NCBI RefSeq assembly: GCF_045037415.1
Contig: NZ_CP173438.1
DNA from: Escherichia coli
Lineage (GTDB): Bacteria; Pseudomonadota; Gammaproteobacteria; Enterobacterales; Enterobacteriaceae
DNA length: 64,000 bases
Strand: one strand, 5' to 3'
Part shown: one piece after another, positions 1 to 3,000 of the stretch
How the letters are laid out: each line of letters begins with the position of its first letter
How positions within the stretch are numbered: position 1 is the first letter of the stretch
Made by a program: the position numbers

Positions 1-3000
1 CTTAGTAGAAAATACGTGTATAACACTTACTGAAATGCTTAGTAAAAATACTTAGTAAAATATGTGTATATAGTATCATACCGACATTCTCAATATCTTC
101 AGACTTCCATACATACTAGGTGTTAATTTTTCACTTTTACAGCCAGCATGGAGTTTTCTGTCCTAAAAACAGAGCAGATTTACTCTGGAATTATTTTTCT
201 GCCCCCGTACTTCAGGCCCCAGAAAAGACAATCCGAAGCAAACCGTTTGTCAACCTCCATATCATCTTTTACCCCCGGAAAGTGATCGCGTTTTACAACC
301 AGAATGACAGCCATACTGATTATGTCGTCTCCCGGCCCCTTCACATATAACATGCATGTCTGTCATTGCTTACTGCTCTACATGACAGGATTTCACATAC
401 AGGATGCGCAGTCAGTGTTTTTATCGCCACTATAACAGACAGATTACTGTCGCTTTTACTCTTCAGATTGTTAATCTGACCACAAGAACAGTCGAACAGT
501 ACAACGACACACCTAAGGAGGATATGATCCGTAGTTGATAGCATGTTTTATTTTATTATGAATAGATCAAGAAATAGTTCTTGATATGTCTGGAATAGTT
601 TTGTGAATAGTTCTAGAATATCCCCATAATCAGCTTTGAGGTGCTTGCAGGGTGATATTTTTATTGATTCCCTTGCATATACAACTGACATGTGATGGTG
701 AAAATCACCAGAAAAGAAAACGATTGAGGCGTAATCAGATGAAACAATATAAAGGCGGTTATAACGTGAATAGATATGACTGGAAAAATAAAACAACTGA
801 GCATTTATTGAATGATAATAATCTGGCAGATAATCACATACCTGAATGGATCAGAAAAAATGAAATTGCAGCATTCTGGTTCTGGTTAATTATGTCTCAT
901 ACAGTTCCCGAAAAACTTAAACTTAATAATGAATCTGAGTTCAATTCTGCCTTGAAGGGGGTGATCGTTATGAAGGATAACCCCATGACAATTATTCCTT
1001 CAAGTCATGAAACACGACTGAATGTTATAGGGAAATGGATTAATGCGTTAATCCTTTATGGGGAAGCAGATCGGATTATCTCAATAATGCATCAAAACTG
1101 GCTGGGACTCGAAAAGAGAAACGAAGCCAAATGGCTTAAAAAGAATACCGAACAACTGAAATGGGCATGGGAATATATTGATGCACGTATCTCACCCACA
1201 TATCTTTCCTGGTTTAATCCTGTAAATGATAACGAAAGATATATTGCCATTGTAGTTTTACTAAAAATGTTATTCCCCACAGACACACCCTGTTTACTGA
1301 CGCCAAAAGAATTTCACCTAGGATTCGCTGCAAAAGAAAGATTTTTCGACAAGATGCACAATGCATTCAGAAAACAGTTTATCGATGGAAAAAAAGATAA
1401 ACGGGTACAAATCAACGTAAAGATATCGCCATCCGCAAAAAGCGCTCTGGACAGACTGACCAGAGAGCGGAAAACAACACAGCAGGCTATTCTGGAACAA
1501 CTGATTCTGTACGGTAGACTGGATTAACTTTCACCACTTTCGCTCCTAGCGATTTTCTTCTTTTTGTAGTGTCTGCTTGCTGCGGGCATCAGGTATTTTT
1601 CCGTCATTTTGTTGCAGAACGCTTCAATGTAGTTAACCATTTTCTGGTGTGCTTTCACCTTTTCCTCCCCAGGGGACATTTTCAGATAAATGTCCTCCTT
1701 TTCCACAAGTGCATTTATAAACTCCTCTAAACATCCCTGGTTATAAAGCGACGTGAAAAACAACACATTCCCCAGTCTCTCCAGTAATTGCGATTTAACC
1801 CTGTATTGTTGTTTTCTGAGAATTGATTGTTTTCTAAAGCTCAGTCTTGTTAAAAGTTGTTCAAATCTTGGTTCAAATTTAAAAACAGATTTTAATCTTA
1901 GGGATTGATACTCCTGATAAAACAGTTCAAACGTCGGGGATGCTGACCGAAGAACAGGTCGGGCCACAGCCCGTGGACTAAATCCCATGACTGAGATTTC
2001 CTTTCCCTCCTCCTGCAAGTTCAGAGGCAGTTCAGCAATCCATGCGTCCAGCTTAGCTGAATCGCTCTCCTTGCTCAAAACCTCATACAAACTGCCCGTG
2101 AACGGTTGAGCCGATTTTGGGGTTGCTTCACCTTTTGACTGTCTGAATCCATCCACTTTTCTCCGGATACTACGCGGAATCAGCATAAAAGGCGGGGCAT
2201 TAAGAGATAAATGTTTACCAGTCATACGATGGCATTGTCCCACCTCGATCCAACAGGAAAATTTACTAACCGACCTTATCTTAAGCGCAATTATGTTAAG
2301 CAGGTACAGATAACGCACCGTATAACGATTAAAATGTTTCTCAGGATCAAACGATTCTGACCGTTCCCCTCTGTACACAAGTCCACTACGCTTCAGTATT
2401 CGCTGGGTATCTTTCCAGGCCTGACTTTTACAAATGCTCATTCGGCGTAGCGTATTAATCGACAGTGATGCCATCACTCCTCCCGAACTTTGTCACTCCA
2501 GATTTTTTCACGCCCATATTACCTGAATGATAAACCGGATTAGTGTGATCCGGTTCAGTGAAATCAACAGGATACCGGTATGTCATTCAGCCATTCTTCC
2601 CTCTCCGCACAAGTGAAATCATATCTGACGTTTCTTCCTGAAGAAATTCGCCAGAAAATCCTTGAACATCTCCACAGTGTTATTCATTACGAGCCCGTGA
2701 TTGGCATTATGGGTAAATCCGGCACCGGCAAAAGCAGCCTGTGTAATGCCATTTTTCAGTCCCGTATCTGCGCCACGCATCCCCTGAACGGCTGCACCCG
2801 CCAGGCTCATCGTCTTACCCTGCAACTCGGTGAACGCAGAATGACGCTGGTCGATCTGCCCGGCATTGGTGAAACACCGCAGCATGATCAGGAATACCGG
2901 ACACTTTATCGTCAGCTGCTACCGGAACTGGATCTGATTATCTGGATCCTGCGGGCAGATGAACGCGCGTATGCCGCCGACATTACCATGCATCAGTTTT

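Follow-up and report, generated by a model that had tools for sequence, protein, structure and literature searches.

The described regulators closest to the locus analyzed here are the ribbon-helix-helix (RHH) repressors of the CopG/Arc/MetJ type and the RepB-RCR_reg family (PF10723), which includes CopB/RepA2 of IncFII plasmids. The locus is a pair of convergent genes, called A and B below, in a 64,000-nucleotide stretch of Escherichia coli DNA (assembly GCF_045037415.1, contig NZ_CP173438.1; this whole stretch is referred to as the window) that begins within a chromosomal island. The A protein shares with these repressors a strand-helix-turn-helix segment, hidden Markov model matches that are weak to moderate and recur across the A family, a repeat array at its own putative promoter, and a gene position beside a replication or excision module. 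The immunity regions of temperate phages and satellites resemble A/B in that they are compact regulator cassettes between outward-facing operons, with sharp borders and with divergent alleles in near-identical genomes. However, A/B has no helix-turn-helix (HTH) proteins of the cI/Cro type and is arranged tail-to-tail rather than head-to-head, B has no known fold or activity, and heteroimmunity is in this case a proposal only. Finally, the K-12 islands CP4-57, CP4-44 and CP4-6 are related through shared gene families, namely YfjJ-type Gp2, YfjP/YeeP GTPase, YfjR WYL, DUF932, antirestriction, RadC and CbtA-type toxin.

Our results showed that A/B is a conserved yet hypervariable module, far more variable than its flanks. 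We tentatively propose, with a little less than even confidence, that the pair serves as an allele-specific regulatory or specificity module of CP4-57/CP4-44-like enterobacterial islands, in which A would be an autorepressor. According to this proposal, an RHH dimer of A would bind helically phased GAATAGWT repeats that overlap the promoter of A itself, and A bound there would repress its own expression; relatives that have decayed less would hold a divergent alpA/rep promoter in this intergenic region as well. B might conceivably act with or against A, e.g. as a co-regulator or an antagonist. Through the pair, each island allele would have a control specificity of its own, comparable to that conferred by the heteroimmune repressor regions of phages, and read-through between the unseparated convergent genes may add mutual interference. 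The features at the center of this proposal are the following.

739-1527, + strand: gene A, 262 aa, ATG at 739, GAGG 9 nt upstream; RefSeq WP_000816188.1
1524-2474, - strand: gene B, 316 aa, ATG at 2474, GGAGG upstream; RefSeq WP_000157734.1
1524-1527, both strands: TTAA palindrome that gives a TAA stop codon to A and to B
1402-1509, + strand: RHH module of A (residues 222-257), with strand RVQINVKIS, helix SPSAKSALDRLTRE, turn KTT and helix QQAILEQLIL
561-622, + strand: putative operator of A, five or six GAATAGWT-like copies (560, 572, 583 (degenerate), 593, 605 and 616) at a spacing of 10-12 nt
601-630, + strand: sigma-70-like promoter candidate for A, TTGTGA-18-CATAAT, with the -35 element and spacer within the repeat array

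The borders of the variable region were apparent from comparisons of closely related islands. From position 2501 onward, locus L002 matches the window at 99-100% identity and has an identical GTPase protein, and across 300-2500 the identity is 37-88%; at the amino acid level, its A and B proteins are 26% and 55% identical to those of the window. In another island (L003), identity to the window is 97-98% over 1-200 and 85-100% (mostly >94%) from 2501, and the sequences between are unrelated. Divergence is lowest at the B N-terminus, higher in the C-terminal half of B, and highest in A, and the GC content is 37% for A, 43% for B and 54% for the GTPase gene. Of 5426 complete E. coli genomes, 1870 carry the GTPase gene, at 2505 places in total and in most genomes with an identity of 90% or more. 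A short form of B (see below) occurs at 820 places in 742 genomes, where the A/B region is 60-100% identical, and a long form at 1069 places in 976 genomes, where it is 95-100% identical across nearly all. About 75% of the E. coli GTPase loci (820 + 1069 of 2505 places) have one of these two forms, and A/B matches occur at up to 3 places per genome. Plasmids contributed 2-4 matching records out of 72,556, all of them island fragments, and a search of species-representative genomes with a narrower alignment returned a single locus.

A and B are real genes. The first-pass annotation of this DNA had described a convergent pair of uncharacterized island proteins that overlap by 4 nt, and the open reading frames were indeed as described: 652..1527 (+; 291 aa from GTG) and 1524..2477 (-; 317 aa from GTG) share the TTAA at 1524-1527. 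The shorter ATG starts, which give 262 and 316 aa, were preferred on the basis of the RefSeq annotation of identical DNA, the N-termini of homologues and the positions of the Shine-Dalgarno sequences. (The window is 98.4% identical to NZ_CP033884 over positions 1-14600 and 100% identical over 400-2600.) Other Enterobacterales encode full-length homologues of both proteins at 23-30% identity, homologue searches confined the two families to this order, and the A homologues, found in Escherichia, Serratia, Salmonella, Klebsiella and Citrobacter, are all labelled hypothetical, the only label that RefSeq gives to either family. As the first-pass annotation had also stated, neither protein could be assigned to a named family: profile searches of Pfam, NCBIfam, PADLOC, PHROGs and the PDB yielded nothing above threshold for A and no match for B. 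The first-pass annotation had named clear homology to well-characterized housekeeping proteins as grounds for rejecting its view, and no homology of that kind exists. A literature search with gene names, domain names and the WP accessions found no paper on either protein. The ratio of nonsynonymous to synonymous substitution rates between E. coli alleles (Nei-Gojobori) was ~0.5 for A, 0.37-0.52 for B and 0.20 for the GTPase gene, which indicates that A and B are under purifying selection, but that this selection is relaxed or their evolution fast.

Several observations argue fairly strongly that A binds DNA in a sequence-specific manner. The last ~45 residues of A have the strand-helix-turn-helix pattern, in which the strand is alternately hydrophobic and helix B is preceded by a short turn, and RHH_1 (PF01402) and RepB-RCR_reg both align to residues 215-257. 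The C-terminal RHH-like motif, already pointed out in the first-pass annotation, is sub-threshold in the window protein and gained support across the family, where RepB-RCR_reg was detected in 7 of 11 members (best E 2e-5) and RHH_1 in 6 of 11 (best E 7e-4). All convergent partners of short B belong to this family, which is marked by invariant Trp positions and the C-terminal RHH, and one allele has been named 'replication regulatory RepB family protein' by PGAP. Of the structure predictions that had been recommended, the AlphaFold2 (AF2) model of A was usable (predicted local distance difference test score, pLDDT, 68) and that of B was not (see below). The A model is all-helical, with a Trp-rich N-terminal domain and the last two helices at 231-244 and 248-257; the strand RVQINVKIS was uncalled in this monomer model, in which pLDDT is <50 at 219-227. 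The NCBIfam RepA regulator model NF010256 (85 aa) reached 14.5 bits against a cut-off of 87 (E 0.027), aligning over profile positions 37-75 only, and PDB profile searches with the A family and with the RHH segment alone gave no meaningful match. The large N-terminal domain of A appears to be new; RHH autoregulators with repeat operators are already familiar.

The iteron-like repeats that had been reported upstream of the pair proved to be well above chance expectation. The pattern AATAGWT-N(3-6)-AATAGWT has 2 matches in the window, both within 561-612, against 0.01 expected, and none of 100 shuffled controls reached 2 matches. Throughout the fetched loci, this paired pattern was present upstream of A only. 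The GAATAGWT repeat was found upstream of A in L019 (three copies), L020 and L029 (four each), and L021 and L004 (two each), and all of the repeat-bearing alleles have a ribbon of the RVQINVKIS or VQINIKVS type. Among RVQINVKIS alleles, the motif is kept at 11-nt spacing and the copy number and surrounding sequence vary; across alleles the copy number ranges from 2 to 6, and the 10-12-nt phasing persists. The distant L004, whose ribbon is VQINIKVS, has AAATAGTT/AACTAGTT at 11-nt spacing, and the L002 type, whose ribbon is RVQISALIS, has two copies of AGAGTT at 10-nt spacing in place of the GAATAGWT repeat. In L021, the N-domain of A is ~50% identical to that of the window, the RHH is nearly identical, and the GAATAG repeat is kept. 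Because L021 combines the same ribbon and the same repeat with a divergent N-domain, the repeat tracks the ribbon sequence and not the N-domain, as would be expected if the RHH reads the repeat.

RHH proteins that bind ~11-bp direct-repeat arrays over their own promoter are typical of ParR/parC, and allele-specific DNA-binding accessory proteins are known from F-like plasmids. On these precedents, A could be a centromere- or oriT-binding accessory protein (ParR/ParG- or TraY/TrwA-like) that partitions or mobilizes the excised island, with B as an adaptor, and the island does encode a Gp2-like rolling-circle Rep together with leading-region-type genes (antirestriction, RadC and DUF932). We consider this explanation rather improbable. 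ParR/parC of plasmid R1, a type II partition system in which an RHH protein binds 11-bp iterons flanking the promoter, is like A in its helically phased direct repeats overlapping a promoter, but A/B has no actin-like or Walker-type partner, the reverse domain order, and fewer repeats (2-6). No NTPase of the ParA, ParM or TubZ type is adjacent; the neighboring GTPase is MMR_HSR1/dynamin-like and belongs to a separate, opposite operon with its own conserved promoter and leader. Furthermore, the RHH of A is C-terminal on a 215-aa domain, unlike that of ParR, ParG or TraY, and the E. coli repeats are far from the rep gene, at a distance of ~1.5 kb.

We also considered the junction at which the two genes meet, where one further element was recognized.

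1540-1565, + strand: weak terminator-like hairpin and T-run, TCGCT-CCT-AGCGA, just past the A stop and within the codons of the B C-terminal tail (KKKKIARSES)

The 4-nt overlap is annotated alike in L001, L002, L004, L019, L020, L021 and L029, and the coding regions overlap by 26 nt in L014; in the remaining relatives they are separated by 6 nt (L010), 13 nt (L008), 70 nt (L015) or 121 nt (L018). On this comparison, the conserved feature is the tail-to-tail order between two outward-facing operons, and not the 4-nt overlap itself. The predicted hairpin folds marginally better than shuffled sequences (z -1.84), and since it is the only terminator-like element after A, the A and B transcripts may run into each other. 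Antisense effects or transcriptional interference between the overlapping transcripts might even be the main regulatory principle, a view favored by the lack of intergenic space between A and B, by the conservation of the convergent order, and by the weakness of the sole terminator-like hairpin and its location inside the B coding region. We assign this view a low probability, given that the overlap is not conserved, that relatives have gaps of 6-121 nt, and that the coding 3' ends overlap by 4 nt only. As the defining trait of the pair, the antisense regulation raised in the first-pass annotation found no support; it may instead be an extra layer on the proposed regulatory module rather than an alternative to it.

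The arrangement of the genes also bears on whether A and B make up a type II toxin-antitoxin or addiction system, in which A would be an RHH antitoxin that counters B. Many antitoxins have RHH domains and autoregulate, and CbtA/CbeA is also present on islands of this family. However, A and B are convergent in all loci examined, rather than co-directional or co-transcribed, RHH domains are normally N-terminal in antitoxins, and scans of Pfam, NCBIfam, PADLOC and PHROGs found no toxin domain. Natural knock-outs exist in both directions: in strain SF-088 (L025, 2325-4528), an IS3-family insertion splits B and leaves A intact, and in strain XH987 (L026, 1540-3685), an independent IS3-family insertion truncates A before the RHH and leaves B and the GTPase gene intact, observations that are suggestive, each coming from a single natural isolate. 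In addition, long B is found without A in 976 genomes, and A is found without B in Klebsiella. The convergent genes, the IS3 knock-outs and the occurrence of each gene alone make a toxin-antitoxin pair very unlikely.

The B protein is basic, with an isoelectric point of 9.85 overall and 10.65 for residues 1-120, and a profile scan recovered only 59 relatives among 1.84 billion representative proteins. Identity between aligned full-length members is 22-30%, and conserved motifs include S-x-AW-x-NTQ-x-LKRSG, I-x-P-x-x-IRRK-x-D-x-F-x-Q and F-x-GSLY; invariance is limited to W20 and P100, none of the conserved residues looks catalytic, and the N-terminal half is better conserved than the C-terminal half. 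Profile comparisons (hhalign) detected no relationship of A to YfjH of CP4-57 (318 aa, divergent from alpA), of B to A, YfjH or the Gp2 protein, or of the long A of Klebsiella to B. B founds a protein family without known relatives, and this family appears to be new.

The neighborhoods of divergent B relatives were read to place the pair in its genomic setting, short B being defined as ~290-345 aa. Short B was paired with an opposite, convergent A-family gene in every locus examined (L001, L002, L004-L006, L008, L010/L011, L014, L015, L018, L019-L021 and L027-L029), and in most short-B loci with enough flanking sequence the other neighbor of B is a divergent YfjP-like GTPase gene. Beyond A, L004, L005, L010 and L018 carry alpA and a Gp2-like rep gene, and longer contigs show alpA, a Gp2/REP_ORF2-G2P gene and Zn_ribbon_11/DUF7828 genes. 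The position of A/B is conserved in islands of different genera, and by this sequence comparison A/B is island backbone, not cargo; the finding of the same two families at the same position across genera at 23-30% identity fits backbone over swappable cargo. In the E. coli islands, tblastn found no alpA beside A, and a Gp2-family gene is kept. In L001, the ~1.35 kb between the Gp2-family gene region and A (10985-12339, corresponding to the window up to 738) has no annotated gene; as other genera have alpA in this stretch, the E. coli islands appear to be partly decayed there.

Two forms of the locus lack one of the partners. Long B (400-465 aa) is extended at the N-terminus by a Cys/His segment that resembles a zinc ribbon, and it never has an A partner (L003, L009, L016/L017); its core is homologous to short B (hhalign probability 97.9%), and hhalign revealed no relationship of long B to A. 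The extension motif, C-x4-C ... AN-x3-R-L/Y-C-D-x-H-Y (e.g. in L003, 6576-7799), is duplicated in P0120 and resembles a treble-clef or HNH-like zinc knuckle. In Klebsiella pneumoniae there is no B, and the only gene between alpA and the GTPase gene is a long A of 362 aa, whose N-extension is disordered and acidic. The tail-to-tail cassette inside a conserved backbone and the three alternative architectures appear to be new.

In K-12 CP4-57 (L012, 6352-12356), the stretch from yfjJ (Gp2 family) to yfjP (GTPase) holds abpB/abpA, yfjM and rnlAB, and no A/B pair or homologue of A or B was seen in this region. The presence of abpAB and rnlAB at the A/B position indicates that this inter-module position also accepts defense cargo, and the pair could by analogy be an anti-phage defense or abortive-infection system, i.e., variable cargo like AbpAB and RnlAB. 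A/B lies between the Gp2-family gene and the GTPase gene, where CP4-57 has these systems, it is fast-evolving, hypervariable and AT-rich, and its host island is mobile and carries a restriction endonuclease gene. Nevertheless, this explanation seems to us an improbable one: neither A nor B matched PADLOC-DB 2.0 at E<=1, B shows no sign of catalysis in the form of invariant acidic or histidine residues, the same two families recur at one position across genera, and A has a repressor-type domain with a matching repeat array at its own promoter.

The side of the cassette opposite to the A promoter is defined by a conserved element in front of the GTPase operon.

2497-2579, + strand: promoter-like box and leader of the GTPase operon, with CATATT at 2515-2520 and the palindrome AACCGGAT-N7-ATCCGGTT at 2533-2555
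2580-3464, + strand: YfjP/YeeP-like GTPase (Pfam MMR_HSR1, 6e-15), first gene of an outward operon

The element begins with a CATATTAC box (-10-like), followed by a nested stem whose outer part is GTGAA/TTCAC and whose inner part is CCGG...CCGG; the GTPase Shine-Dalgarno sequence and ATG come next, and in most relatives the stem is followed by TTTTTCACAGGAG and the ATG. It was found in every architecture, including L004, L008, L009, L010, L016, L018 and the gap between A and the GTPase gene of Klebsiella (L023, 9087-9163), and compensatory changes affect 5 of 14 predicted pairs of the stem (8 loci). The hypervariable cassette stops where this element starts. Its conservation in all architectures suggests that the GTPase operon has its own conserved promoter and leader, and the element might act as a structured 5' leader, as an attenuator or as a palindromic operator. 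From the layout of the sequence, the putative B promoter must overlap it on the opposite strand.

This fixed place of B, back-to-back with the GTPase promoter, together with its basic N-terminal half and the variable, presumably helical C-terminal half that adjoins A, suggests that B works with A, as do the zinc-ribbon-like extension and low diversity of the long forms that lack A, with other explanations possible. Several points weigh against the proposal that A/B is an allele-specific regulatory module with A as autorepressor. The window A protein falls below the Pfam gathering cut-offs, with 13.3 bits against 20.5 for RHH_1 (E 0.09) and 13.0 against 21 for RepB-RCR_reg (E 0.1), and the candidate A promoter is a consensus match only. 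B has no recognizable DNA-binding or other domain, and its AF2 model (pLDDT 47) was unusable. The correlated divergence of A and B could reflect physical linkage alone, and their AT-richness could equally mark a foreign cassette. Furthermore, the Klebsiella A without B means that B is not obligatory for A function, and because the E. coli islands have no alpA beside A, the presumed second target promoter is missing there.

A more far-reaching version of the regulatory proposal, which we regard as doubtful, is that A/B would be the hitherto unrecognized master switch of a very common family of enterobacterial islands. In such a switch, each allele would combine an RHH repressor with a matching B of new fold, co-resident islands would be controlled independently (heteroimmunity), and the pair would decide on excision, replication by the Gp2-like Rep, and expression of the genes from the GTPase to CbtA; otherwise, A/B might be a new two-protein defense system in the backbone.

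The upstream region also holds a second array.

9-62, + strand: second iteron-like array, AAAATACTTAGT-type units; Tandem Repeats Finder period 12-13, 4.5 copies

Over window 1-80 and upstream, this array includes five copies of GTGTAT, three of AAAACACTT and three of CTTAGTARAA, and in L001 (11500-11680) it runs ~100 nt beyond the window start. It is 96-98% conserved in islands with other or unrelated A/B cassettes and, being kept across cassette types, is part of the backbone rather than an A-specific feature. The array may serve as an origin, or else as an operator to which a conserved backbone protein binds. In Klebsiella (L023, 7940-7990), similar motifs (AAATAC, CTTAGTA and GTGTAT) lie directly on the A promoter. 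A search of Rfam with the long non-coding stretch upstream of A and with the A/B pair gave no match.

Downstream, the GTPase gene is followed by genes for a WYL/HTH regulator, DUF905, DUF932, antirestriction, RadC/JAB, DUF987, CbeA/CbtA, DUF5983, DUF957 and DUF4942. Relative to L001, the window has lost 1 nt near 5756, which splits its DUF932 gene (5501-6318) into two open reading frames (5501-5776 and 5788-6318); the gene is also a different, mosaic allele and probably a pseudogene in this strain. At the island end, the DUF4942 gene is interrupted by an IS21-like element at ~10094-12345, which has istB/istA and corresponds to ISEc10 of the near-identical L001.

Few mobile elements are as common in E. 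coli and related pathogens as the islands of this family, and the relatives examined carry CbtA-type toxins, anti-restriction genes and defense cargo (AbpAB and RnlAB in K-12). In the literature, we found no description of how these islands are controlled. Our result is modest in that the DNA-binding half belongs to the familiar RHH autoregulators and the function of B is a guess. It defines two protein families, that of the A N-domain and that of B, and the allele-diversified cassette of putative regulators with its candidate operator provides a concrete experimental handle on island control.

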